Positions 6,496 through 59,985 are shown, numbered from the stretch's first letter. The stretch: DNA of 64,000 bases from Acidobacteriota bacterium (GCA_965205505.1 CBDBHB010000009.1:2912001-2976000); one strand, 5' to 3'. Program-made: numbers and translations. The notes: generated by a model not told the origin, from the sequence alone.

Positions 6496-7324
6496 CGTCA
6501 GCTCTAGCGGTCAACGCCATGTCGAACTCCCGCGCCAGCTTTTCGACGCGCGCGCGGTCGAATAGGACCGTCATGTCCGCTTCGATCGCTAGCGCCGAGG
6601 CGCCGACCTCGCGCATGGTCTCCAGCGTGCGCGCACCTACCACTGGCACGTCGAATCGCAGGTCTTGATCAGGCTTGGCCACTTTCACCACCACCGAGCC
6701 GGGGCCGCCGAGATCGCCGCCTCTCCGGACGCAGGCGTCCGTCCCCTCCATTCCCTCCACGGCTACTGCCGCCTTTTCCTTGACCACCACGGTTTGCCCG
6801 ATATCGTGCTCGCCGAGGGCCTTGGCAATCCGCCAGCCGTGTCGGATGTCGGCGTCTTCAGTAGCCGTCAGCTGACGCCCGGCGGTCCACCCCGGGGCGG
6901 GCATCAACGGGCGTAGATAACGCGTCGACTCGACCAGACGAATACCGGCTGACTCCAGCACCTTCGCCACGGCGCCGAGCAGCTGGTCCGTGTGGCCGGA
7001 TGGGAGCTCGGCGAGCATCGCCTGTATTCCGCCGTCATCATCGCGCTCGTACATGCGCTGCTGTTCGACCTTTCCCGCCATGATGGCTTCGGTGATGCCA
7101 TCTCGACGCCAACCCTCGAGCACGCTGAAGAAAGCGGGAAGGTCGCCCCAATTGAGCCACTCGATGCCGTCGACCTGCGCCTCGAGCGCAGGATCGGTGA
7201 TGCCGTGGATGGCAGCGGCAAGCACGCGCCTGCCTTCCTGTCGCGCCTCGCGCGCGACCAACACGGGCATTTGTGTGCTACCGGCGATCAGCGCCAGCGC
7301 CTCACTTGGCGATTCCGAGCTCAC
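6488..7324 (-). CDS. lpxI: UDP-2,3-diacylglucosamine pyrophosphatase LpxI
   Basis: LIAG, DIGQTVVV..AVEGMEGTD, KVAKPDQDLRFDVPVVG. Confidence 0.92.
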   Translation of the reverse strand: MSSESPSEALALIAGSTQMPVLVAREARQEGRRVLAAAIHGITDPALEAQVDGIEWLNWGDLPAFFSVLEGWRRDGITEAIMAGKVEQQRMYERDDDGGIQAMLAELPSGHTDQLLGAVAKVLESAGIRLVESTRYLRPLMPAPGWTAGRQLTATEDADIRHGWRIAKALGEHDIGQTVVVKEKAAVAVEGMEGTDACVRRGGDLGGPGSVVVKVAKPDQDLRFDVPVVGARTLETMREVGASALAIEADMTVLFDRARVEKLAREFDMALTARADDA

Positions 7325-8087
7325 TGCTCTTTACGAATGACACCAGCTGGTCAACCTCGGGACCAGCGGGCCCGCCCGCGGTGATCTTTGCCAGCGCCTG
7401 AGTGGTGTTGAGCTTTTCGCGGAACAAGATGCGGAAGACCCGCTTGAGGTCGCGGCGTACCTCATCGTCGTAGCCGCAGCGCTGCAAGCCTATCGAATTC
7501 AAGCCCAGGATGCGCGCGTGGTTGCCGTGTACCCGGGCGAACGGCACAACGTCCTTGGTAACCCCAGCATACGCCGCCAGATAGGCGTGCGCACCGATAC
7601 GAACATATTGCTGGATACCGCAGAAAGCGTTGAGAATCGCGTAGTCGCCGACCTCGACGTGTCCCGCCAGGGTGGCGGCATTGCCGAAAATAGTGTGATC
7701 GCCGACCTGGCAATCGTGTGCCACGTGCGAGTAAGCCATGAACATGTTGCCCGAACCGATCCGGGTGACGCCTCCGCCGCCTTCGGTACCCCTATTCGCC
7801 GTCACGAACTCGCGAAACGTGTTGTCCTCGCCGGTCTCCAGGAAGGACACCTCGCCATCGAATTTCAGGTCTTGCGGCTCGGATCCGACCGAGGCGTGCG
7901 GGAACACGCGCGTGTGGGCGCCCAGAGCAGTGCGATCGTGCACAACCGCGAACGCACCAATCTCCGATCCGTCGCCGATTCTTGCGGTCGGATGAACGAT
8001 CGCATATGGCCCGAGCTTGACGCCGACGCCGAGCTCCGCTCCCTCGTGTACGACAGCTGTCGGATGGCACTCTACCTGCACGCTCAT
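7302..8087 (-). CDS. lpxA: UDP-GlcNAc acyltransferase LpxA
   Basis: Hexapeptide repeats, EPQDLKF, REFVT.NRGT, HVAHDC. ATG 8087 overlaps the fabZ stop. Confidence 0.95.
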   Translation of the reverse strand: MSVQVECHPTAVVHEGAELGVGVKLGPYAIVHPTARIGDGSEIGAFAVVHDRTALGAHTRVFPHASVGSEPQDLKFDGEVSFLETGEDNTFREFVTANRGTEGGGGVTRIGSGNMFMAYSHVAHDCQVGDHTIFGNAATLAGHVEVGDYAILNAFCGIQQYVRIGAHAYLAAYAGVTKDVVPFARVHGNHARILGLNSIGLQRCGYDDEVRRDLKRVFRILFREKLNTTQALAKITAGGPAGPEVDQLVSFVKSSELGIAK

Positions 8088-8539
8088 CGCGCCACCCCGG
8101 TTCCCGGATCGACCATCAATGACAACAAAATGGCTTCGGCGGCGGTCTCCCCATCGACCGTCGCACGGCCGGCCATCTTGCACGCGCGTGGACGCATCGA
8201 AAGCACCGTGAGCTCCATCCGTAGTTGATCACCGGGAACGACCGGCCGACGGAAGCGCACCTTGTCGACGCCTGCGAGGTAGAAAAACTTGCCGGCAAGA
8301 GCGTCGCCGCCCTCGCGAATCACCATGACAGCCCCGGTCTGGGCCATCGCCTCGACGATCAGCACTCCGGGCATCACCGGGCTGCCCGGGAAGTGGCCGG
8401 GAAAGAACGGTTCGTTCATCGTAACGTTCTTGATCCCGACGACCCGTTCACCCGGGTCCATCTCGACGATGCGGTCGACCAGCAAGAACGGATAACGATG
8501 TGGCAGCGCCGCCATGATGCCTGCGATGTCGACGGTCAA
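8084..8539 (-). CDS. fabZ: 3-hydroxyacyl-ACP dehydratase FabZ
   Basis: [33 protein letters not shown]. Confidence 0.97.
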
Positions 8540-8542
8540 GCC

Positions 8543-9607
8543 CTACTCCTCGCGGCGGCTCTCGGCCGCCTTCTCCAGTCGCCGAACGCGACGCCGCAAC
8601 TCCGGCAGCTTGGCGAGCGTACCGATGACGCGTCGCCACAAACCAATTTCCATGTGCGGAGAGCCTCCGACGACCGAACCCGGGGGCAGGTCGCCGTGAA
8701 CGCCGCTCCTGGCGGCAAGCATCGAACCGGCTCCGATCACCTGGTGCCCCGAGGTGCCGACGTTGCCACCGACGATGACGCCATCCTCCAGCACCGTGCT
8801 GCCGGAGAGGCCAGTCTGGGCGCTGATCGCACAGTGCCGACCAATGTCGCAATTGTGGCCGATCTGCACCAGGTTGTCGATTTTAGTCCCCGCGCCCACC
8901 CGCGTGGCGCGTAGCGTGCCGCGATCGATGCAGGTGTTGGCGCCGATGTCCACGTCGTGCTCAATTACTACCCCGCCAATCTGCGGGATTTTCATCTGCT
9001 CTGACCCATCGCGCGCGAATCCGAAGCCTTCCGCCCCGATCACCACGCCGGAGTGAAGCACGACGCGGTCGCCGATCCGCGTGCCCTCGTAGACGGTGAC
9101 GTTCGGATAGAGCGTGCAATGCTCGCCCAAGCGTACGCCTCGCCCGACCGTGCAGCCGTGGCCGATCTCGCTGCCGGCGCCGATTGCGGCCGCGGCACCG
9201 ATCTCCACGTGGGCGCCTACGGCCACGTCGGCCGCCAGGTCCGCCTCCGGATCGACCCTGGCGCTAGTGTGGATTCCGCTTGTCGTGGGCTGCAGCGGAT
9301 ACAGCGCGTCGAGAACGAGCGCGACGGCGCAATACGGATCTTCGACCCGTATCAGGTTGATTTCCTTACCCGGCGCGTGCTGCGCGACCTCCAATTCCCG
9401 CGGTACGAGCACCGCGGCGGCAAAGGTGGTCGCCAGCGCCCTGGCTCGCTTGCTATCGGTCACGAATACGATGTCGCGTTCGGTCGCCAGCCCGATCTCT
9501 GCCACGCCGTCGACGATACGTTCGGGATCGCCTTCCAAGCTGCCGTCGACGAGGTCTGCAAGTGCGGTCAGCCGCAACCCCGCGATGGATCTAGAACGTC
9601 GAGCCAA
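8543..9607 (-). CDS. lpxD: UDP-3-O-acylglucosamine N-acyltransferase LpxD
   Basis: Hexapeptide repeats, GFGF..KIPQIG, IDRG, KIDNLVQIGHN. Exact start uncertain. Confidence 0.95.
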   Translation of the reverse strand: MARRSRSIAGLRLTALADLVDGSLEGDPERIVDGVAEIGLATERDIVFVTDSKRARALATTFAAAVLVPRELEVAQHAPGKEINLIRVEDPYCAVALVLDALYPLQPTTSGIHTSARVDPEADLAADVAVGAHVEIGAAAAIGAGSEIGHGCTVGRGVRLGEHCTLYPNVTVYEGTRIGDRVVLHSGVVIGAEGFGFARDGSEQMKIPQIGGVVIEHDVDIGANTCIDRGTLRATRVGAGTKIDNLVQIGHNCDIGRHCAISAQTGLSGSTVLEDGVIVGGNVGTSGHQVIGAGSMLAARSGVHGDLPPGSVVGGSPHMEIGLWRRVIGTLAKLPELRRRVRRLEKAAESRREE

Positions 9608-49574: not shown

Positions 49575-50229
49575 ACGCGCGCACGATCGGGGTAGCGGCC
49601 GGGACGTTCCCGCTCGATGCGATCGGCAGACCGGCCACCTCCACAGGCATTGCGGCGCGGCCTACCGCGGCCGGTGCGGGGTTTTGACCGTGAGTCTCGA
49701 ACAGGGCCGGACTGCAGACCGGGAACAACGTCTCCTCGAACAGCGTCTCCCGGCGGGTCGTCTCCGCGCTCGGCGCCTTGGCCTCGCCGGCATAGGTGAT
49801 CCAGACGTCGAAGTCGTGCCGGTTGGGGTCGACGCCCAAGTGGTCGGTCTCCAACTCGATGATAACGCCAGGGTGGGACACCTGGAAATCCGCCAGCTTC
49901 GGCATGAGCCACCGCTCGGCGACGGATTCGACCGAAACCAGTTTCAGCCGCTGTATCCCGGAATCGCCGCGGCAGCGTTCCGTGATGTCCCGGATCTCGG
50001 CCAGAATGCGCTGGACATCCTTCAGATACGCCTTGCCGCGCCCGTTCAGGCGCACACTACGATGACTGCGCTCGAACAGCGCGCCGTCGAGATGCTCTTC
50101 CAGTACCTTGATGCGGTGGGCAACGGCCGACGATGAGACGTTGAACTCCTCAGCCGCCTTGGCGAAGCTCTCGCGGCGGGCCGCGGCTTCGAAGAAGCGC
50201 AGGCATTCAAGCGGCGGAAGTGGCGGCAT
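49540..50229 (-). pseudogene. LysR-family (GcvA-like) regulator, C-terminally truncated
   Basis: LPPL..LRFFEAAARRESF.KAAEE.NVS.SAV HTH; similarity ends after PVCSPAL (~180 aa). Confidence 0.8.
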
Positions 50230-50469
50230 GGTCGCGGATCTCCGAACAGGAATAGGTGCTCCTTTGATTGCCTACATAGGGTAAGCGTGACTCACAGGAG
50301 TTTTGGAATATAAAATTAACGGCTATGGGACAATTAAATTCGGCAGTGTGTACTTGTTGCAAATGTGCGTAGAACCGCGCAGCCTTTGGCGAGAATAGAC
50401 ATGGCGAGGGCTTGGCGCGTCAAGGCCGGGAATGGATTCGGTGGGGCGCTGCAGGGCTCGGGAGCCGAC

Positions 50470-50643
50470 TCAGTCTTTAGTCGGATCTTCTTCGTTTGCC
50501 GACTTGGCTGACGCGCTGCGGCCCTTCTTCTCGGGCGGCGCTGTCAGGAGCCGATGCACGGCTTCCTCGGGATCAATGTCGATCCGCAACCGGTCGGCTG
50601 TAGGCCCTGGTTTCTTCTTTTCATCGGGCTTTGAAACACTCAT
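50470..50643 (-). CDS. Small 57-aa hypothetical protein inside the IS
   Basis: Hand-translated MSVSKPDEKKKPGPTADRLRIDIDPEEAVHRLLTAPPEKKGRSASAKSANEEDPTKD; shorter than any ORF in the track. Confidence 0.55.
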   Translation of the reverse strand: MSVSKPDEKKKPGPTADRLRIDIDPEEAVHRLLTAPPEKKGRSASAKSANEEDPTKD

Positions 50644-50668
50644 GTCTCAAGGCTACCATTGGTGCGAG

Positions 50669-50756
50669 TGCCCCCGGCGGGATTCGAACCCGCAAGACGT
50701 GAAATCGTCAACCGGTTGCAAACCGGGCGTGTATGCCGATTTCCACCACGGGGCGC
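50669..50756 (-). tRNA. Atypical class II tRNA: Leu-type body, anticodon UGC (Ala), irregular acceptor stem
   Basis: GTG-GAAATCGGCATA-CAC D-arm; CCGG-TTTGCAA-CCGG; V-arm GACG/CGTC; GCGGG-TTCGAAT-CCCGC; A73. Confidence 0.75.
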
Positions 50757-50780
50757 TTTTCTTGTCTCTCGGGACCAAAA

Positions 50781-51893
50781 CTACCGGACCATTGCATCCG
50801 GAACAGCCCGCAGCATTCCGCGCTTCTCGTCCCTGTTCACCTGGACTCCATACGAGTACCTGAACTCCTCCGGTAGCAGCCCCAACGTGGCGGCCAACTG
50901 GTCCGTGGTCCAGTTCAGGTTGTCTATGTGCCATTCGACATACTGCCCCAGGAGGGTTGGCCACTCCCGCGGCGGGTCCAACTCTGGCGGCTCGCGGCGT
51001 CGATACCCGGCCTTACTGAGCCGCATCCAAAGCCGCTTCTCGGCTCGGGGCGTGATTCGGCGCAGCTCCTTGGCCCGGTACAGGAGTGCCGCCATTGACA
51101 CTCGCCAGTACTTCTTGAGCGTAGCGAGCTTCGCGAACGTCAGGTTGGACAACTGTGTCCGTATCTCCGTTTCAGGCATCAAGAACTCAGCGGCGAAACC
51201 ATCCGCTTGGCGCTCCATGTCCGCGTCTGGCACGGGGACGGTGTGCATCACAATGTGGGCAAGCTCATGCGCCAACGTGAGACGAGTTCGATCCGGGGGC
51301 ATGCGCGAGTTCAAGAAGAACAAAGGAGGGAGGTCCGGAAGCCAACGGCTTACAGCGTCGACCTTCCCGGTGCCGAAATCGAACTGCACGACTATGCCGC
51401 CAGCGTTCTCGATAATCGCGACGAAGTCCTCAACTGGGCCGGGTGGAACGTTCCAATGGGCGCGCAGCAGTTTCGCGATCTTCGCTGTATCGGCTCCGTA
51501 TTCGTCGGGGTCGAATACGGGAAACTTGTCAGTTTTCAGTTCAACGGTTGCCACAAGACGCCGAACGTGGATCAAGTACCGGTTGATAAGAGCATGTATC
51601 TGACGAATCACCCCAACCGGAGCAGACTGTCGTTTCCGATGAAAGAACTCACTAACCGATGGGCTGACCATCTTGTCCGTGAAGAAAAAGAAGCCCTTCG
51701 GATAACTGAGCGCGCCGCACAGCTCATCCAGCACACCATCCGAAACGGGAACGAAGCCCGCCTCGATCTTCGACAAATGACCCTGTGTGATGCTCAGGTG
51801 CTCGGAGGCTAGTCGGCTTTGGGAGAACCCCCGCGTTTCTCGAGCGAGGGTGACCATTGCTGGGTTGACCGTGTCACCAACCAGTTGTTTCAT
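50781..51893 (-). CDS. XRE HTH plus ImmA/IrrE zinc metallopeptidase
   Basis: LARETRGFSQ.RLA..SKIEAG HTH; R.RLTLAHELAH; ERQADGFAAEFLMP; WRVSMAA. Confidence 0.92.
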   Translation of the reverse strand: MKQLVGDTVNPAMVTLARETRGFSQSRLASEHLSITQGHLSKIEAGFVPVSDGVLDELCGALSYPKGFFFFTDKMVSPSVSEFFHRKRQSAPVGVIRQIHALINRYLIHVRRLVATVELKTDKFPVFDPDEYGADTAKIAKLLRAHWNVPPGPVEDFVAIIENAGGIVVQFDFGTGKVDAVSRWLPDLPPLFFLNSRMPPDRTRLTLAHELAHIVMHTVPVPDADMERQADGFAAEFLMPETEIRTQLSNLTFAKLATLKKYWRVSMAALLYRAKELRRITPRAEKRLWMRLSKAGYRRREPPELDPPREWPTLLGQYVEWHIDNLNWTTDQLAATLGLLPEEFRYSYGVQVNRDEKRGMLRAVPDAMVR

Positions 51894-51899
51894 GAACGA

Positions 51900-52604
51900 T
51901 CACTCCGCCTCGTCTTCTGATTTCTTGTTCTTCCGCTTCGACTCGCCCCGAGCCTCAAAGCGGCGTTCGTGATCGACTTGCTTGCGCGCCTGCTCGGCTT
52001 CGGCCCGCATTCTCGTTCGTGCGGCTGCGGCGAAGTCGATAACGGTTGTGCGTGCTTCTAGCGGCAGTTCCCAAGCGTTGTCCTTGCCGTTTGGGCACAC
52101 GACATGGAAGCTCGCCGCGAGCCATTCTCCCGGTTCCGCTGCATAACCGAACAGAAGGCTCGTCACCGGGATTCGCCCGGCTGAACTCGGTGGATAGTCT
52201 GGGAACGGGAGACCCGCTTGACGCTCTACCGCTACCGACCGTTGAAACAGAAACCCGCTCATTACGCGCGTCGGGATGTTGCTCGGTCGCATGTTCCCAT
52301 CGAAGCCCTTGATGCGCCCACTGTATTTCTTCTGGCCTCCCATTTGGAGGTCGACGTAAACGGTTCCATCTTGGTCCCGCACATCGATATCGTGATCGTC
52401 CTCGAACTCGGCCCGGATGAACGCAGCTGCATAGTCCCAGATCACCCCTCGTTGCGTTCGCACGCTAAGCTCCGGATCTGACCCATACTTTGCGTCGAAC
52501 TCACCGAGCGCTTGGGCAAGGCAATCAGCGATACGTCCTCCGACGTTCCCGCCCCCGATCTCGTCCAAGTCTTTCGCAACCGTCTCTTCTGATCTGATCG
52601 TCAT
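51900..52604 (-). CDS. Hypothetical protein, putative toxin partner of the XRE-ImmA gene
   Basis: ATG at 52604; 6-bp gap to the next gene; RIKGFD..SNIPT, LLFGY, VVCP..W motifs. Confidence 0.7.
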   Translation of the reverse strand: MTIRSEETVAKDLDEIGGGNVGGRIADCLAQALGEFDAKYGSDPELSVRTQRGVIWDYAAAFIRAEFEDDHDIDVRDQDGTVYVDLQMGGQKKYSGRIKGFDGNMRPSNIPTRVMSGFLFQRSVAVERQAGLPFPDYPPSSAGRIPVTSLLFGYAAEPGEWLAASFHVVCPNGKDNAWELPLEARTTVIDFAAAARTRMRAEAEQARKQVDHERRFEARGESKRKNKKSEDEAE

Positions 52605-52660
52605 GCGCTGCAAACTCCGATTTGCTCCTCCTGCCTGGATAGTCAAGCGCCCCACTTGCG

Positions 52661-52741
52661 ACGGTAGCGAAGCGGTGCGGCGTTTTCAAGGGTTCTATGC
52701 ATAATTTATGCATTGCATTAAGTATAAAGATACTGTAGACT
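52661..52741. promoter_or_regulatory. Divergent sigma70-like promoters around a perfect palindrome
   Basis: Minus strand TTGAAA-17-TACCGT; plus strand TTGCAT-17-TAGACT; ATGCATAA-T-TTATGCAT at 52697-52713. Confidence 0.6.
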
Positions 52742-52751
52742 CCTTTCTGTC

Positions 52752-53702
52752 ATGTCAAAACGAGCACCGAAGTCACCGATCCTGGCGGAGTTGAGACGGG
52801 CCACCATCGACGAAAAGGCGGCCGTCGAGTTCTTCGAGCGCCATCGCTGGGGCTCGGACACCGGTTGCCCCCGATGCGGCAGCACGAACGTCTATCAAAT
52901 GAGTGATCGCAAGACCGGCGTGCGGAACAAGGACTATCGCTGGCGCTGTCGTGACTGCAAGCGTATGTACACGGTCAGGACGGGCACGATCTTCGAGGAA
53001 ACCCGTCTGCTGCTTCGGCACTGGTGCTTCGCTTTCTGGAAGGCATGCGCCTCCAAGAAGGGCGTGAGTGCCCTACAGATCAGCCGGGAGTGCGAGATCA
53101 GCTACAAGTCGGCTTTGTTCTTGATGCACCGCATCCGCTACGCGATGGCCTACGGCCACATGCTGCCCCCGGCCCGCAAGCTGTCGGGCATCGTCGAGGT
53201 CGACGAAACCTACGTTGGTGGGAAGCCGCGCTACCCAGGCAAAGGGAAGCGGGGTCGCGGCACCGCCAAGACGCCGGTTCTTGGGATCGTCGAGCGCGGG
53301 GGTGACGTGCGCTTCGAGGTCATGGACCGCGTGACTGCCGCGACGCTAGAGCACGCAGTCGCAGAGCACGTCGACACGGATTCCCGACTGATCACCGACG
53401 AGCTGAACGCATACATCCGAGTCGGGCGTCATTATCGGAAGCATGACCGGATCAAGCACAAGGACCGCCAGTACGTTCGGGGCGACGTCCACACGAACAC
53501 CGTTGAGGGCACCTTCGCGCTACTCAAGCGGGGGATCTATGGGACGTACCATTCGGTCAGCAAGAAGCACCTGCACCGATATCTCGGTGAGTTCGCCTTC
53601 CGCTACAACCGCCGCGGGATCAACGACGATGAGCGCGTTGTGGCGGCAATCAAGCGGGCCGATGGAAAGCGCCTGCCTTTCCGCACGCTGGTAGATGGCT
53701 AG
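52752..53702 (+). CDS. IS1595-family (ISXO2-like) DDE transposase
   Basis: Zn ribbon CPRC..CRDC, VEVDETYVGG, LITDE, HTNTVE, HLHRYL.EF.FRYN. Confidence 0.95.
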   Translation: MSKRAPKSPILAELRRATIDEKAAVEFFERHRWGSDTGCPRCGSTNVYQMSDRKTGVRNKDYRWRCRDCKRMYTVRTGTIFEETRLLLRHWCFAFWKACASKKGVSALQISRECEISYKSALFLMHRIRYAMAYGHMLPPARKLSGIVEVDETYVGGKPRYPGKGKRGRGTAKTPVLGIVERGGDVRFEVMDRVTAATLEHAVAEHVDTDSRLITDELNAYIRVGRHYRKHDRIKHKDRQYVRGDVHTNTVEGTFALLKRGIYGTYHSVSKKHLHRYLGEFAFRYNRRGINDDERVVAAIKRADGKRLPFRTLVDG

Positions 53703-53954
53703 CGGTTACCGAGCCGGTGTTACGCTGACATTGGGTGAGAGCCAGGTGCTAGCCTAGGTCCGTCAGACGGGCAGTGAGATATACGGGAGAAGGGGGTCGT
53801 CCAATGCGGACGACCCCCTTCTCTTGTCTTCTAGCGTCGCGTTCGGCAGAAGTTGCAACAGGTACACACTGTCGATTAAATTTGGCCAGACGCGTGACCC
53901 TCCCCCGTTCGATTGCTCGCACATCTTCCTGAAATACCCGGACGCTCCCGGCGG

Positions 53955-54700
53955 CTCCTGGCCGGGTGGCGAGCTGTCCGCGAGCGTAGCGTGCCAGCAT
54001 GGTGGGCGAGAGCCAGCGTCCTGCCTGCTGCATTTCAACCAGCGAAGCGCCAGCGGCGGCGGGGTCCTGTACCGCTCCGATGCGCAGCGAGTGCCCGGAC
54101 ACCCGGCCTTGGACGCCGGCTTCGGCGCAGCGCCGGGCGATGATGGCGCGCAACGCCGTGGCCGAGATCGGCTCGGAGCCTGCACGCCGCCCACCCTTGT
54201 GCAGCCGCACGAACACCGTCGGCTCGCCGATGTAAAGCGCGGCTCCGGCCGCCTCTTGATCCGTCTTGGAGCGGCGCAGGGTGATCGTATGCCCGCCGTC
54301 GGCCTCGATGTCGCCCCAGCGCAGCGTGGCGAGTTCCGAGACGGCAAAGCATCGCCGCCGAGCCGACCGCCACGATGGCCCTGTCGAGCAATCCGTGGGT
54401 GCTCTTGGAGCCATTAGCGGCGACAGCGGCCGCAGCGTCGGCCTGGCCCCATCGCACGCCGGTGGCCGCGCCCGCGCGAGCGTTCGGCGCCGACGTGCCG
54501 GAACCCGTCTAGCACCCGTGCCGTGGCCTCGCCCACGGGCGAGAGTTCTCCACTGAAGCGGTACTGTGCCCGCACGGTCACAACAATCATTGAGGCCGGC
54601 GCCGGCGAGCGTCCGGCTTCGAACAGCGAGCCCAAATACACGGCGAGGGAAGAGTCGGTGAGCTCGGGTGGCGTCGCCAGCGGACATTTGGCATCGCGCG
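53955..54700 (-). pseudogene. Tyrosine recombinase (Cre-like) relic with multiple frameshifts
   Basis: Fragments in different frames: LLDRAI, SELATL, RRSKTDQE, SGHSLRIG, QAGRWLSPTM..RY. Limits approximate. Confidence 0.8.
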
Positions 54701-55023: not shown

Positions 55024-58000
55024 CTACCTAAAAATCCCGCCTAGTCCGTAGCTCAGCCGCCGCGCGCCCTCGCTCCCCGCATGGACAAACGTATCAAGAA
55101 CTTCGATCAGACGTTGCCGAGCCTCCTCGTCCGTCTGAAAGAGCGCACGGTAGTCAGCCAAGTAGCGATCGACGATTCGCACTATCACCTCCTCCGCCAT
55201 CTGGTCGTACTGATAGCCTCCCATCCGTCCCCCGCGGACAACGCGCGCAACTCTCGAAAACACCCGACGGGGATCGACAGGGACAAGAACCTCGAGCGCT
55301 TGCAATAGGTTGTGGCTAAGCGGCGGAAGCCCGACGCCCGCCAACTCGTCGATAATCTCCCCCGACTCGGCGTGCAAGCGCCGGAGCACCTGCTCGCCGG
55401 GCGATTCGTCGCCATCCTGCGCGCCCGAAGCAAAGCAGATGTTCCAACTCACGCACTCTAGCAGACGCGCAAGGTCCTGCATCTGTTCTTCGCTGGGCCC
55501 ATCCTCTGCGACATCATGGGTATCCTCTTCGCGTTCCATCCCACGACGGAACTCAGCCGCCGCTCCCCTCGTAACTCGCAGGAGGAAGCTCCAACTTCGC
55601 CCGCGGGCAGCGTCGGTCTCAGGATCTCGAGGATCAACCGCACCACTCACCAGAATCTCGCGGAATCCCTGCACCAAGTGAGTGACGTCCTCAAGATGAG
55701 CGACAGGATTATCAGCAAGCCCGTCGATCACCGCTGAAGCGGCTTCATCCCTGCCCCAGATGAAAAGGTCAGCGAGAATATTGCCGCATGAATTTGCCAG
55801 CTCGCGTGCATCTGCCACAGCCTCCTGAATACCTATCGTGATCCTGGCGACCCGCGCCGGCTCTTCGAACTTCAGAGAGCTGAGCGGACCTTTCACCAAC
55901 CCCCGCAGCACCCCTGGACTACGATCGCGGGCCATCCGTTCGATCATCCTCCACGTCCAATCCGAGTCGTGGGGATACCGAACCAGTAACCGGGAAGCAA
56001 TCTGCCATCGGACGCACGGCGCGGGATCGACGACCAGCCGCTCCACGGCGGCAAGAACGTCCGGATCCTCGCAGGAAGGATGCTGGAGGATCGTCATTAG
56101 ACCTGCGGCAGCATCTATGCGGGCTGCCGGCTTCCCCCACGAAGCTTCCAAGAAGCGCTCGTCTGCGTCGCTGTCGAAGGCCGGCACTCGGTTCCCACTT
56201 GCCTCGAGCAGCACGGTCCGCACGAATGCGCCTGCCTCTTCGTGGCAAAGAAGGCCCTCTGTTTTCGCAATCGCAGCGCTCGCCTCAGCCAAAATCCCCC
56301 AAGCGTAATCGGCCTGCTTCTCGTGAACGCCGTCAGCTTCGGAGGATCGCAGTGTTGTGTACAGACGCCTCATGTGCGGGATCACCTCGGCTAGTTCCTC
56401 GGATTCGGGAACCTCGTTGAGGTGAACCTTCGCAAACTTCTTAACCGGCACTTCCAGCTCCCGAAGGCGCTTGTTCGGCTCCTCCTCTACCGGCACTCCT
56501 TCATCGGCGAGGAACTCAACCTCACCAGCCTCTCGGCTGTACAACGGGAACGTGGCAACCTCCTCGCTTAGCGGAACCGTGCCCGCAGCACGCAGCGCAG
56601 ACAGATGCTCCCGGGACTCCGAGGTCACGAGCCCGTCCTCAGGAAGACATCCGAGCAGTCGATCGCGTGCCCGCTCCGCCCAACTTTGGCATTCTCGCGG
56701 CATTACCACTGGAATGGAAAGAATGGCGCGTTCGATCCTCTCTCGGTCAGCCTCGGACAGATCGACAAAAAGAGCGCCGTTCATTCTTCCGACATCCTCT
56801 ATCGTGTCAGGACACATCAAGACGGGGAGCGACCACCCGAGCGCCCGAATCTTCATGCCTATCTGGTCTGGATAGCGAGTTCCCAGACGGAGAAGCCGTC
56901 GCCAAACAGCCGCCAGCTGACATGTCCGAACGAGGATGTCCAGCAGGTTGGCCAGCTCCGCCGTGCCTCCCTGGCCGCCGGCGAGGTCCTCCAACCGCCG
57001 CTGCACTTGATCCAACAACTTGACTGCATGCTCGTCGCGATGGCCTTGACCTCGATCCCAGATGGAGCTGTGATCCGTTAGGAGAACAGCCCGTACCCTA
57101 TCAAGGTCGAATTCGGCAGGCTCTTCGTCAGGCGGCGAGTATTCGTGGGCGACGTGCCATTGGAGAGCGGCATGCATAGCCTCAACCGCTTCTTGTGGCG
57201 CTGCACGCAGGAACTCTGGAAATGATTGGACCAGTTGGTAGAGTCCACCGCGATAGTCTTGGCGGCGATTCGATATCAGCGCGACGACTTTCCCTCCCAC
57301 GGGAACTGGCGCCTCGGACGTTTCCCGGTATCCGAAGGCGGCTCGGTAGATATCTCTGACCAAAGCCGGGGCGTGGGGTGTGATCGAGGTCACCGCGTCT
57401 GCAATCCAGCGCAGCTCCTCGCTTCCGTGCTGTGCGAGGTGGTCGGGTTGGATCGCACGCCGCAGAAGCTCAGAAGATGCTCCGACATCGGTCCCGAACG
57501 TGTGGCCGACAAACTGTATGGCCCTCACCACAAGCCATCGATCTCTCTGGCTCCGAGCCCACGCAAAAGCAAGGAGACGCCGACTGGCCGTGCCCACTTG
57601 CTCAGCCTGCGCAACGGAGAGTTGATCGAGCCTTGCCACGAGATTCGATAGGATCGAGCATGTTGGATAGGCGGTCCCGATCGTGAAGCTGCCGCTAAGC
57701 TGCTCCGCTAGATCACAACACAACCCGGCAGCCTCAGGCTGGGAACCACGCTCCGCAAGGAGAGCGCGAACACAGTGCGCCAGTGCATTCTCTGCCGACT
57801 CGCGAACAGGGTCATCCGCGCCCGCAAGCGCCGTCAGGAGCGGCACGAACTCCTGAACAGCCAACCCACTCTCTGCGGCCACGCCGGATCCAATCAGCTT
57901 GCCGATCTCAGGAATCCCGGGTGAGCCGCACACGGCAAGAGCTGTCTTCCAGAACTCCTTCCGTGCCTGCTGTGGTGGGTCAAGCGTCCAGAGATAATGG

Positions 58001-59985
58001 AAGTGCATTACAAGACTCGGTCTCCCCAGCAAGACAAAAGCGCGGTCCTCTGCGAGAAACGCTACCAAGCGACTGGCGCTGCACCGAAGCAGCAGCCGAG
58101 CGACGGCATAGTCGAACAGAACATGATGCGCGAAAGCGAGTGTAGAGCTTCGCGGTGGGTCTTCTGGTCGCGGGCTCCACTCAATGATCACCTGCTCCGA
58201 TAGGAGATCGTAGATGTGTGGTCCTGCCGAGACTTCCGTCTCCACAAGGTCCCGATCCGCGTGCAGGACTCGCTCGCGGGTCATGGTCTTCACTGCCCCC
58301 CGAAGAACAACCTCCCGAGATGGAGCGTCGCGCGCGCTGCCACCTCCGAGAACGCGTTCCTGCCAGTAGAGGTCGAGTAGATCCAGTTGGCTCCTTACAT
58401 CCCGAATCGCCTGCGGATCGGTGCCTTTATCCAGTAACTCCGCGGCAAGCCTAAGATTGAAAGGGTTGTGTAGGAGTTCGGCGACCGCTGTCGAAGCTGA
58501 CTCGAGGAGTCGAGCCAGTTTTGGAGCGCCACGGTCGCCGATCTGTTGCAGCTCGTCATCCGTCAGCCGCCCGACGACGATATGGCGCATTCCGGCAAAT
58601 GACTCCCCAGCAAGGGGAGGCTCAGGACCGTCGAGCGGAGTGCCCTTGAAAATAGTGGCCAGATCCCCGCTGTAGCGAGCATCGTGCTCACGGATCGACG
58701 CGACGACATTCCACCGGGTCCCTCGTTCACCGACTTCTCGGATCAGAGTCCTGAGGGCTGCAGCCGATCGTTCGGTCCGAGCTGCGTCCAGTGCATCGAT
58801 AAGCAGGAAAGAGGGGCGTGCCCCTGGCCAATTCGCGAGAATGTCCACGACGTCGTGGTCGAGTCGCAGCTCGTCTCGCAATCCTCCCATGCTCTCAAAT
58901 GGCGGTTGCTCGGCCGCCAGCACGATTACTTCACGTCCCTCCTTTCGCAGCGCCTCGCAAAGCGAGTGGAGTGCACTCGATTTTCCCGCCCCAGGTTCGC
59001 CAACAACAAGAATGGGCCCAGTTTCAGCAGCCTCCTTGAGGAGAGAGACGTAGGGCCGCTGGATCCGCAAATCAGCGCACCCCAGTCGAATGGACGCATG
59101 TTCTGCCAGGCGGCTAGTGACCCGATCGCTGTGATTCTTCAGGCGCCGAATGTCTTCCCGATAGCTCCGCGGGGCGCGTACCCTCACGTCGGCGGAGTTC
59201 AACACTTCAAGCAACGTGGCCCGATCCGCGTGACCTTGTGTTCGGATCAGGCGCAGACCTTCGGTGATCAACACCGACCATGCCACGGCGGCCTGATCGG
59301 GGGTTTCGAGCACACTCGCCCGGAGGATGCTCTTTGCCGCTTGTTCGTCTCTCTCGCCCTCGCCCACTTCGATTGTCTCGACGTGAAGGAGGTTCAGGAG
59401 CTTGCGGACATCGTGGTCACTAGGGCGGGACCGGGTTGTCGCGCTCCAGGACGCCCGGATGTGGTGAGCAACAACGTCCAGGGCTCTTCGCCGCTTGCCG
59501 AGCCCGTCACTGGGCAGCTCGTGGCCTGGGTGGTCGCGTACGCGCCCCAACGCCTCGCGGAGAGTCACACGAATGGTCGCGGGAGCGTCGACACCTACCG
59601 CCAAAACGAGGCGATCATGCGCGGCATCCAAAGGGTCCTCACCGCCCCCCGGTGCCGTTCTCCCTTGCAGGAACTGCCGAACGAATTGGTCCACGGCCGA
59701 GGCAAACGGCGCGAGTTTCCCGGCGCGATGCCCAGCGCAGGAAAGGGAAACGGTCCGTTTCACCTGTACATACGCGGTATGCCGGGTGCGCGTCGTGACG
59801 ATCAGGTCATCGACTGGTTCGGGACTTTCGCAGGCGATTTGAGCTACAGGCGCCGTCAACCGGAATGGCGGTTCCGCATCCTCCTCCGCAAGCAGGTGCA
59901 CAGCTACCCAGGCACTGACTCGCGCCTGGTAGTCCGCCCCGCCCCCCATCGCGGCTCCCCCCACGCTCGGGCGCCTACCCACCAC
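55024..59985 (-). CDS. PD-(D/E)xK-like nuclease plus STAND NTPase plus long C-terminal region (Avs-like defence protein)
   Basis: G.DYQ...E...VDDL...QVK; GEPGAGKS; LLIDALD; NPFNL; ~1000-aa helical-looking tail. Confidence 0.8.
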   Translation of the reverse strand: MVGRRPSVGGAAMGGGADYQARVSAWVAVHLLAEEDAEPPFRLTAPVAQIACESPEPVDDLIVTTRTRHTAYVQVKRTVSLSCAGHRAGKLAPFASAVDQFVRQFLQGRTAPGGGEDPLDAAHDRLVLAVGVDAPATIRVTLREALGRVRDHPGHELPSDGLGKRRRALDVVAHHIRASWSATTRSRPSDHDVRKLLNLLHVETIEVGEGERDEQAAKSILRASVLETPDQAAVAWSVLITEGLRLIRTQGHADRATLLEVLNSADVRVRAPRSYREDIRRLKNHSDRVTSRLAEHASIRLGCADLRIQRPYVSLLKEAAETGPILVVGEPGAGKSSALHSLCEALRKEGREVIVLAAEQPPFESMGGLRDELRLDHDVVDILANWPGARPSFLLIDALDAARTERSAAALRTLIREVGERGTRWNVVASIREHDARYSGDLATIFKGTPLDGPEPPLAGESFAGMRHIVVGRLTDDELQQIGDRGAPKLARLLESASTAVAELLHNPFNLRLAAELLDKGTDPQAIRDVRSQLDLLDLYWQERVLGGGSARDAPSREVVLRGAVKTMTRERVLHADRDLVETEVSAGPHIYDLLSEQVIIEWSPRPEDPPRSSTLAFAHHVLFDYAVARLLLRCSASRLVAFLAEDRAFVLLGRPSLVMHFHYLWTLDPPQQARKEFWKTALAVCGSPGIPEIGKLIGSGVAAESGLAVQEFVPLLTALAGADDPVRESAENALAHCVRALLAERGSQPEAAGLCCDLAEQLSGSFTIGTAYPTCSILSNLVARLDQLSVAQAEQVGTASRRLLAFAWARSQRDRWLVVRAIQFVGHTFGTDVGASSELLRRAIQPDHLAQHGSEELRWIADAVTSITPHAPALVRDIYRAAFGYRETSEAPVPVGGKVVALISNRRQDYRGGLYQLVQSFPEFLRAAPQEAVEAMHAALQWHVAHEYSPPDEEPAEFDLDRVRAVLLTDHSSIWDRGQGHRDEHAVKLLDQVQRRLEDLAGGQGGTAELANLLDILVRTCQLAAVWRRLLRLGTRYPDQIGMKIRALGWSLPVLMCPDTIEDVGRMNGALFVDLSEADRERIERAILSIPVVMPRECQSWAERARDRLLGCLPEDGLVTSESREHLSALRAAGTVPLSEEVATFPLYSREAGEVEFLADEGVPVEEEPNKRLRELEVPVKKFAKVHLNEVPESEELAEVIPHMRRLYTTLRSSEADGVHEKQADYAWGILAEASAAIAKTEGLLCHEEAGAFVRTVLLEASGNRVPAFDSDADERFLEASWGKPAARIDAAAGLMTILQHPSCEDPDVLAAVERLVVDPAPCVRWQIASRLLVRYPHDSDWTWRMIERMARDRSPGVLRGLVKGPLSSLKFEEPARVARITIGIQEAVADARELANSCGNILADLFIWGRDEAASAVIDGLADNPVAHLEDVTHLVQGFREILVSGAVDPRDPETDAARGRSWSFLLRVTRGAAAEFRRGMEREEDTHDVAEDGPSEEQMQDLARLLECVSWNICFASGAQDGDESPGEQVLRRLHAESGEIIDELAGVGLPPLSHNLLQALEVLVPVDPRRVFSRVARVVRGGRMGGYQYDQMAEEVIVRIVDRYLADYRALFQTDEEARQRLIEVLDTFVHAGSEGARRLSYGLGGIFR

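Follow-up and report, generated by a model that had tools for sequence, protein, structure and literature searches.

Natural transfer RNAs whose body and anticodon point to different amino acids are, to our knowledge, rare, and most of them are known just as isolated genes. For Acidobacteria, the available text of Mukai et al. (2017, PMC5389517) reports allo-tRNAs and irregular tRNAs near toxin-antitoxin (TA) systems and a transposon-related open reading frame (ORF), and proposes a missense-suppressor or regulatory role for such tRNAs. A second described system of relevance is RosmerTA. According to the text available (10.1101/2022.05.11.491447, PMC10440598), a Zn-peptidase antitoxin is combined there with varied toxins of unknown function, cells do not tolerate the loss of rmrA, and a member carried by a phage protects E. 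coli. In the present study we analysed a 64,000-nt stretch of an Acidobacteriota genome (GCA_965205505.1, CBDBHB010000009.1:2912001-2976000; in the following the window, with positions counted from its first letter). It contains an insertion sequence (IS) of the IS1595 family that carries a RosmerTA-like gene pair, a leucine-like tRNA gene with an alanine anticodon, and a micro-ORF.

The original prediction for this locus, made from the window alone, had regarded such a combination as not described. This is right in part. Irregular tRNAs near TA and transposon genes were already known (available text of PMC5389517). In the literature outside subscription journals and ISfinder we found no account of a Leu-like tRNA(UGC) family, of tRNAs as IS1595 passengers, or of the micro-ORF.

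A leucine-like tRNA family with an alanine anticodon

The tRNA gene of the window (50668..50755, minus strand, 88 nt) is predicted to encode a class-II, Leu-like tRNA with anticodon UGC and A73. ARAGORN and Rfam agree on a tRNA with this anticodon and a long variable arm, and the tRNA was the sole match in an Rfam scan of the IS; Rfam recovered it in just two of the six loci given. Further support comes from the covariation of the family. The 43 distinct sequences collected form a canonical class-II cloverleaf with a 7-bp acceptor stem and a 5-bp T-stem, in which 97.7% of cells are paired. Compensatory changes were found at 18 of the 24 pairs, among them six of the seven acceptor pairs and two of the five T-stem pairs. 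The covariation score is 0.696, compared with 0.144 for shuffled alignments (0 of 500 reached 0.696) and at most 0.144 with slid partners.

The rules of tRNA identity used here are established knowledge. In an allo-tRNA the acceptor branch of 12 bp is split 8/4 or 9/3, and the family shows neither division. Pair 3:70 is C:G in 29 sequences, including the window lineage, G:C in 10, A:U in two, and U:A and G:U in one each; the identity element of alanyl-tRNA synthetase (AlaRS), G3:U70, is thus not a feature of this family. The long variable arm (with a stem of 4 bp), the nearly invariant A73 and a D-arm of the Leu type (GUGG..GG..A.AC) are the identity features of a bacterial tRNA-Leu, and for 10 of the 12 family members tested the closest canonical tRNA of the own genome is tRNA-Leu. 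The anticodon is UGC and not one for leucine. Judged by these elements, the family falls outside the allo-tRNAs, its identity is not that of a tRNA-Ala, and its anticodon is not that of a tRNA-Leu.

Further features are conserved. The T-loop and G18G19 of the D-loop are kept, CCA is encoded in many copies, and U33 and the UGC triplet are kept while the neighbouring loop positions and all stems change; most of the sequences were collected with a degenerate pattern that required TTTGC. A set of loci obtained independently of this pattern is given by the hidden Markov model (HMM) of the micro-ORF described below. All seven of its strong matches (E<=1.5e-11, five genomes) have a class-II tRNA(UGC) just upstream, and loop positions 32, 37 and 38 differ among these tRNAs, which argues that the anticodon itself is under selection.

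Recurring passengers of an IS1595 clade

A BLAST comparison of the cargo with 401 genomes of the phylum revealed the tRNA in three other genomes: 95% identical and with perfect stems in G039, which belongs to the same family as the window genome (G000), 77% identical in G398 from another family, and at two loci in G069 from the same genus. The degenerate pattern matched 21 loci in species-representative genomes and 33 metagenome loci, of which 16 and 30, respectively, have class-II tRNA(UGC) genes. The titles of these records name Acidobacteriota, Alpha-, Gamma- and Deltaproteobacteria, Chloroflexota, Verrucomicrobiota, Gemmatimonadota, Bacteroidota, Zixibacteria and Clostridia. At six of the 21 genome loci and 10 of the 33 metagenome loci the tRNA has an IS1595-family transposase gene no further than 2 kb away, and one also adjoins the copies in G158 and G190.

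Complete elements with perfect terminal inverted repeats (IRs) and 8-bp duplications measure 2.25 kb (loci L025 and L036); the element at L022 in G069 measures 3.36 kb. G190 has two element copies with different flanks. The order within the clade is IR, transposase gene (leftward), middle gene, tRNA, micro-ORF, IR. It is the middle gene that varies: a 178-aa protein in L025 and L036, a coiled-coil and winged-helix protein with an acidic DEDIPF-like tail in L028, L047, L051, L061, L064 and L077, a weakly DUF5343-like protein in L030 and G190, a 214-235-aa protein in L052, L058 and G158, and a toxin-RmrA pair in the window and L022. The structure model of the winged-helix protein (pLDDT 79) matched winged-helix repressor domains only (Fur, PerR, ArsR, MarR). 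By conserved gene order, then, tRNA and micro-ORF are recurring passengers of an IS1595 clade in the phylum, and the middle cargo is usually the winged-helix protein. The tRNA had been taken originally for a component of a mobile addiction or anti-phage module, but neither it nor the micro-ORF is specific to the TA pair, as both are constant across the whole clade.

The tRNA is always on the cargo strand. In the IS-borne, prophage and G398 copies it starts 11-126 nt past the upstream gene, and the micro-ORF follows after a few tens of nt. The gene on its 5' side is regularly of a DNA-binding type, i.e. RmrA, an XRE antitoxin or the coiled-coil and winged-helix protein. The same tRNA family occurs, moreover, in a prophage and in ordinary chromosomal settings. 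In the G039 prophage it follows genes for a ParE toxin and an XRE antitoxin outside any IS, and some loci appear to be plain chromosomal sites. In other phyla the tRNA usually follows a small protein that is winged-helix-like by eye; Pfam backs this only in L043 (HARE-HTH, E 1.5e-6) and faintly in L026.

The complete four-part cargo recurs as well. The L022 element from the congener has perfect 22-bp IRs, the duplication AATAACTT and a transposase 69% identical to that of the window. Its 225-aa protein belongs to the family of the putative toxin (hhalign 99.6%, E 1.2e-23), its RmrA is 46% identical, its tRNA shows compensatory changes in acceptor, variable and T stems, and its micro-ORF has 51 aa. 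The second G069 locus is reduced to the tRNA, the micro-ORF and one IR. A profile search for the toxin family found four of the 401 genomes: G000, G069, G298 and, with a truncated copy, G384. In all three full-length cases an IS1595-family transposase gene is adjacent, and the toxin gene is succeeded first by rmrA and next by an odd tRNA; the linkage of toxin, peptidase and tRNA on which the original prediction depended is therefore recurrent. RmrA at E<=1e-30 occurs in four of 391 genomes, three of them with an odd tRNA and the fourth (31% identical) without.

In G298 the order is IS1595-family transposase (35% identical; NF033547, 200.8 bits), toxin homologue, RmrA (44%), tRNA and a small ORF, enclosed by a different pair of terminal repeats. 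The small ORF shows no significant relation to the micro-ORF family (hhalign probability 0.9%, E 0.059), and the likeness is by eye only. The tRNA has 85 nt, anticodon UAU, and an 8-bp acceptor with a 4-bp T-stem, a fold that makes it an allo-tRNA. The slot between RmrA and a small ORF is thus taken by two unrelated odd tRNAs. Such a pattern would also fit a tRNA that is a non-decoding RNA part, either a processing or stability "punctuation" between the upstream mRNA and that of the micro-ORF, or an RNA with a regulatory or toxic effect that titrates a factor binding tRNAs. The available text of PMC5389517 points the same way, with allo-tRNA(UAU) variants that were inactive in translation in E. 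coli, two of them lethal, and a proposed tie to TA systems or transposable elements. However, a mere cleavage signal should not need UGC and U33 kept amid changing loop and stems, nor the conserved A73, T-loop and G18G19 and the often encoded CCA. We consider a non-decoding role rather unlikely, but the chief alternative.

The micro-ORF

The micro-ORF of the window (50470..50643, minus strand) is predicted to encode a Lys-rich micro-protein of 57 aa, family A4 in our analysis. In an alignment of 17 sequences the differences by codon position amount to 0.62 at third, 0.31 at first and 0.29 at second positions; third positions change twice as often, which indicates a real coding gene. No match was found in Pfam, NCBIfam, PADLOC or PHROGs. 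An ORF of 36-57 aa with a Lys-rich start and a conserved core lies directly 3' of the tRNA in 22 of the 50 loci examined, 18 of them recognised by a strict motif and four by eye, with several contigs ending too early to tell. Outside the strong HMM matches, 13 weak ones were obtained (E>=1.8e-4), ten of them inside frames of 279-411 aa; three were checked and none has a tRNA. No conclusion here draws on the unpublished genome G152.

Two alphaproteobacterial plasmids encode IS1595 transposases of 40% identity: p1318-1 of Roseomonas marmotae (L104) and pMOC1 of Methylobacterium oryzae (L105). Their cargo comprises a hypothetical gene, a gene for a PIN/VapC toxin and a gene for a Lys/Pro-rich protein of 61-62 aa, which resembles the micro-ORF family by eye only. 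No tRNA was present in these two relatives. TA-like cargo with a terminal small ORF may accordingly be general in this branch of IS1595.

Sister copies and a defect in the acceptor stem

In the Rfam alignment the window tRNA lacks one base of the 5' acceptor strand and has a C:U mismatch at 27:43. Its Rfam tRNA score is 37.3 bits versus 53 and 50.9 bits for relatives, a reduction due to the missing base. The one-base deletion in the acceptor stem probably weakens or silences this tRNA. An intact element, as originally proposed, is thus found for the ORFs, which are all open, but not for the tRNA.

Contigs of sequencing run X1 are identical to the window over 50339-53991, with the left junction not spanned by a matching contig. 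In two runs from other studies (X4 and X5) a near-identical IS was detected, with 4-8 other letters differing per contig of about 1-2 kb. These contigs share three one-base insertions. With an extra G behind 50749 the acceptor strand regains its fifth C and forms a perfect 7-bp stem, as in G039; an insertion behind 51902 slightly lengthens the toxin ORF; and one behind 53540 breaks the transposase frame. Contig depth is 2.6-3.6, and both runs agree. These contigs break off at the IS ends, leaving roughly 30 letters unaligned, and the insertion site may therefore differ. A joint of 50692 to 52923 in contigs was set aside because it had only 23 letters on one side. The window allele combines an intact transposase with a damaged tRNA, and the X4/X5 allele the reverse; these two alleles are an anecdote, which fits a costly active tRNA.

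The acceptor deletion, the 27:43 mismatch and the low score, set beside the full stem of the 95%-identical G039 copy and of the X4/X5 variant, would also fit a decaying passenger without present function, in which case only the TA pair and the transposase would matter. However, a single bulge need not kill function, as tRNAs with bulged acceptor branches are reported in the available text of PMC5389517, and the rest of the gene and the neighbouring micro-ORF are intact. We regard such decay as improbable.

The insertion sequence and its surroundings

The IS is bounded by a 22-bp left repeat starting with CGG (IR-L, 50341..50362) and a 22-bp right repeat (IR-R, 53853..53874), which agree at 20 of 22 positions after reverse complementing and are the longest inverted pair in 50200-54000. 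Outside them lie two copies of the perfect 8-bp target-site duplication ATTAAATT (50333..50340 and 53875..53882). The element has 3,534 bp and a G+C content of 59.3%, compared with 63.6% in the whole window, and is present once in its own genome of 5.98 Mb. The plus-strand ORF at 52752..53702 encodes a DDE transposase of 316 aa with an N-terminal Zn ribbon (DDE_Tnp_IS1595, PF12762, E 1.3e-44; Zn_ribbon_IS1595, PF12760, E 8.9e-11). Its score with the NCBIfam model transpos_IS1595 (NF033547) is 200.8 bits at a cut-off of 75, and it aligns over its full length, with both ends, to the homologue from L022. A perfect, terminator-like hairpin with a 16-bp stem follows on the 3' side of the gene (53787..53823, plus strand).

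Transposase type, terminal IRs and 8-bp duplication together place the element in the IS1595 family. Four complete elements of the clade have perfect, AT-rich 8-bp duplications (ATTAAATT in the window, AATAACTT in L022, TTTCTAAT in L025 and TTAGAAAT in L036), which excludes a chance arrangement. The vehicle is an ordinary, intact IS1595-family transporter IS, as had been predicted from the repeats, the duplication and the transposase. In the ISNha5 sub-group, elements end in CGGnnTT, are 3.45-7.9 kb long and carry passenger genes. Here the ends read CGGCAGT and CGACAGT, the length is 3,534 bp and passengers are present; the element may or may not belong to this sub-group.

The divergent cargo run, also anticipated correctly, lies entirely on the minus strand: the 234-aa ORF, 6 nt, the 370-aa XRE/M78 ORF, 25 nt, the 88-nt tRNA, 24 nt and the 57-aa ORF, whose end is 107 nt from IR-L. 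A likeness of the IR to the tRNA D-arm was rejected as chance, with only 9-13 of 22 positions agreeing by hand in the window and L025 tRNAs (13 and 9, respectively). In three other loci the reverse complement of the D-arm and anticodon stem agrees with the IR consensus at 16-17 of 22 positions (L024 7331-7352, L030 2004-2025, L023 7215-7236), probably by chance too.

The claim that the immediate neighbours are decayed received weak support, solely from partial Pfam coverage: the LysR ORF covers only positions 6-92 of the 209 of its substrate-domain profile, and the match of the flanking integrase ORF is confined to residues 116-236 of 312. The integrase remnant adjoins a 1,653-aa protein (55024-59985, minus strand) that weakly matches STAND/AAA NTPases, and the IS may be located inside a defence or mobile-element island. 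An integrase beside the IS would suit a tRNA gene with the role of a landing pad for integrases, a portable attachment site that lets islands and IS travel together, and so would the G039 copy, which lies inside a prophage and whose 3' end and discriminator are unlike those of the other copies. However, the remnant is at the transposase end of the element and not at the tRNA end, the G039 tRNA lies between portal and terminase genes, away from the prophage border, and the 2.25-kb elements have no integrase beside the tRNA. An attachment site is therefore highly unlikely.

Several observations concern further elements and odd tRNAs. One or two conserved GC-rich hairpins lie between middle gene and tRNA in L025 (1877-1994) and in matching stretches of L036, L030, L048, L055, L058 and L069-L071; their cores read GGGCCGC..GCGGCCC and GTGGGGACG..CGTCCCCAC, pairing is retained at some of the base changes, and Rfam has no family for these hairpins of the 2.25-kb elements. 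The acidic DEDIPF/DDDIPF tail, found in the six winged-helix middle proteins named above and in a protein at L004 (4484-5023), resembles the C-terminal protein-interaction tail of bacterial SSB. This L004 protein (179 aa, coiled-coil, ending in DDDIPF) aligns with the winged-helix middle proteins and is directly followed by a tRNA with a four-letter anticodon call (G000:C9:617574-617648; L004 5075-5149). Elsewhere in the same genome, an odd 76-nt class-I tRNA with anticodon GGA (G000:C4:81188-81263; L003 6189-6264) has a copy of an IS1-like transposase gene on either side (NF033558, 68.5 bits, below cut-off). Three odd tRNAs are found within 3 kb at L021 (G069:C2:5211000-5225000; 6565-9519), followed by an IS1-like transposase gene: Arg-CCU (72 nt), a class-II UGC accompanied by its micro-ORF and a single IR, and Ser-GGA (76 nt), which is preceded by a 200-aa protein. 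This cluster is reminiscent of what Mukai et al. call "polycistrons of irregular tRNAs". In Azospirillum cavernae (L026, 1995-2331) two tandem class-II tRNA(UGC) genes of 89 nt each, with CCA encoded, stand behind a gene for a small winged-helix-like protein. A metagenome-assembled genome labelled Bacteroidota (L027) has a near-identical tRNA and upstream protein. As it is assigned to another phylum, this points to transfer or to an error in binning.

The toxin-antitoxin-like pair

The second gene of the cargo (50781..51893, minus strand) encodes an RmrA-like antitoxin or repressor of 370 aa, in which an XRE helix-turn-helix (HTH) domain is fused to an M78 (ImmA/IrrE) Zn-peptidase, the combination typical of RosmerTA antitoxins. 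It matched 14 PADLOC models of RmrA (best E 3.5e-53, residues 9-344) and Peptidase_M78 of Pfam (E 3.2e-20). The HExxH motif is intact, with H209, E210 and H213 invariant in an alignment of 45 sequences. The XRE-M78 family is very large, with at least 1,861 matches at E<=1e-20 among 8,000 candidates scored.

The first gene (51900..52604, minus strand; 234 aa, or 251 aa from an upstream GTG), whose stop codon lies 6 nt ahead of the rmrA start, occupies the position of RmrT and encodes a putative toxin of an unnamed family. No match was found in Pfam, NCBIfam, PADLOC or PHROGs, a word-index search recovered only the protein itself, and the Protein Atlas gave clusters of "hypothetical protein" only. 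An exhaustive HMMER search yielded 20 distant relatives of about 200-230 aa (E 3e-9 to 7e-4), with a few invariant residues in common. The structure model (pLDDT 83.8) weakly matched folds of the restriction-endonuclease type (SwaI, Z 6.1; NaeI, 6.0; EcoRV, 5.9). We therefore describe the protein as a putative toxin with a weakly indicated restriction-endonuclease-like fold, and no more. A predicted toxin-RmrA complex scored 0.14 and 0.24 against a mark of 0.32, values that carry no weight either way.

A TA-like pair, as claimed from the start, is supported by these profile matches: the XRE-ImmA protein is an RmrA-type antitoxin of RosmerTA, with the unnamed upstream gene in toxin position. 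The putative toxin is placed in no known RmrT family: no PADLOC model, those of RmrT included, matched it or any of its 19 aligned relatives at E<=0.01. As RmrT families are diverse, this lowers the case for a known member and not for a pair that works like RosmerTA, which the analogy still suggests. In the divergent intergenic region of 147 nt, a perfect 8-1-8 palindrome (ATGCATAA-T-TTATGCAT, 52697..52713) is a candidate operator.

Proposed mechanism

What was observed of anatomy, family membership, recurrence and structural conservation can be joined in a model of transcription, charging, decoding, toxicity and regulation. The best explanation as a whole, which we hold tentatively and rate as somewhat less than evenly balanced, is an intact, recently inserted IS with a RosmerTA-like pair and a Leu-charged tRNA that reads GCA/GCG. 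Its minus-strand cargo would be a single operon of two modules, the RosmerTA-like pair and the tRNA with its Lys-rich protein of 36-57 aa. The operon would be transcribed from the divergent intergenic region under autorepression by RmrA, with the XRE domain acting at the palindrome, and the M78 peptidase would relieve repression or neutralisation on a trigger. The toxin-RmrA pair would stabilise the element and possibly contribute to phage defence. The usual processing enzymes would release the tRNA from the transcript of the operon, and leucyl-tRNA synthetase would charge it. Ala, Leu and Ser synthetases do not read the anticodon (available text of PMC11028032), and leucyl-tRNA synthetase could therefore charge a Leu-like UGC tRNA, while the absence of G3:U70 would exclude AlaRS. 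Leucine would finally be inserted at GCA/GCG codons, at a low rate that the repressor gene upstream determines.

Several points weigh against this model. None of the 20 sequencing runs is listed on record as RNA. Between rmrA and the tRNA there is a hairpin with a T-run that resembles a terminator, and no separate promoter was found. The invariance of the anticodon in the 43-sequence alignment is partly built in, because the pattern forced TTTGC. The window tRNA is damaged, and the X4/X5 variant with the intact stem has a frame-breaking base in the transposase ORF. Given the unrelated allo-tRNA(UAU) in the same slot of G298, the slot may need "an odd tRNA" and not Ala-to-Leu decoding; the inactivity and lethality of allo-tRNA(UAU) variants in E. 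coli, cited above, belong here as well. For the toxin, the RmrT models gave no match and the fold match at Z of about 6 sits under the caution line of the tool itself. Codon supplementation was rejected as a use of the tRNA, the IS genes not being GCA-rich (17 of 89 Ala codons, compared with 9 of 73 and 33 of 204 in two neighbouring genes).

A bolder version would make the odd tRNA the effector of a mobile defence or addiction cassette, in which regulated, proteome-wide Ala-to-Leu mistranslation arrests the cell, spread is by IS1595, and hosts escape by stem defects. The trigger would be an RmrA-type or winged-helix repressor inactivated by phage or stress, after which stable Leu-charged tRNA would fill the cell. 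The allo-tRNA variant would be another mis-assigned tRNA and the window copy an example of escape. We judge this version to be very improbable.

Comparison with known systems

The tRNA family described here has a structure conserved across several phyla, keeps its alanine anticodon and is a fixed passenger of a predicted-active IS clade behind a repressor-type gene, which in three genomes is the rmrA of a RosmerTA-like pair. It may offer a concrete, clonable system of 2.3-3.5 kb for regulated mistranslation, or for a toxic tRNA as weapon or stabiliser, and would explain the clustering of irregular tRNAs with TA systems noted in 2017. An RNA gene would be added to the passenger repertoire of IS elements and, if the model is true, a mobile element may spread deliberate mistranslation among soil bacteria.

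Like IS1595-family transporter IS of the ISNha5 type listed in ISfinder, the element combines a Zn-ribbon transposase and IRs starting with CGG with 8-bp duplications, passenger genes and a size of 3.5 kb. Unlike them, the present clade has a tRNA gene and a conserved micro-ORF beside one IR. RosmerTA (Millman et al. 2022; Ernits et al. 2023) is matched in the XRE and ImmA/M78 antitoxin gene that follows a toxin gene of no known family, and in the tight junction of the two. The differences are a toxin without PADLOC RmrT match and an operon that would run on into tRNA and micro-ORF inside an IS.

With the allo- and irregular tRNAs in the available text of PMC5389517 the family shares a class-II-like form, an anticodon at odds with the identity elements, an occurrence in soil bacteria and a place near TA or transposon genes, and G298 has a true 8/4 allo-tRNA(UAU) in the same slot. 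In contrast, the window tRNA is a canonical 7/5 tRNA with covariation support, a Leu-type D-arm and A73, and no word beginning with UGC occurs in the main text available of that paper. A mismatch between body and anticodon is also known from natural mistranslating tRNAs, i.e. bacterial tRNAPro with Ala, Thr or Asn anticodons and the V-arm tRNAs of nematodes (in part after the available text of PMC10365949). The nematode tRNAs are class II as well, and they are charged with leucine, as we infer for the window tRNA. Unlike all of these, the window tRNA is IS-borne and has no dedicated synthetase gene adjoining. Transporter IS, RosmerTA-like pairs and anticodon-mismatched tRNAs are each of a known kind; what sets this case apart is that an RNA gene has a constant position within a mobile element.

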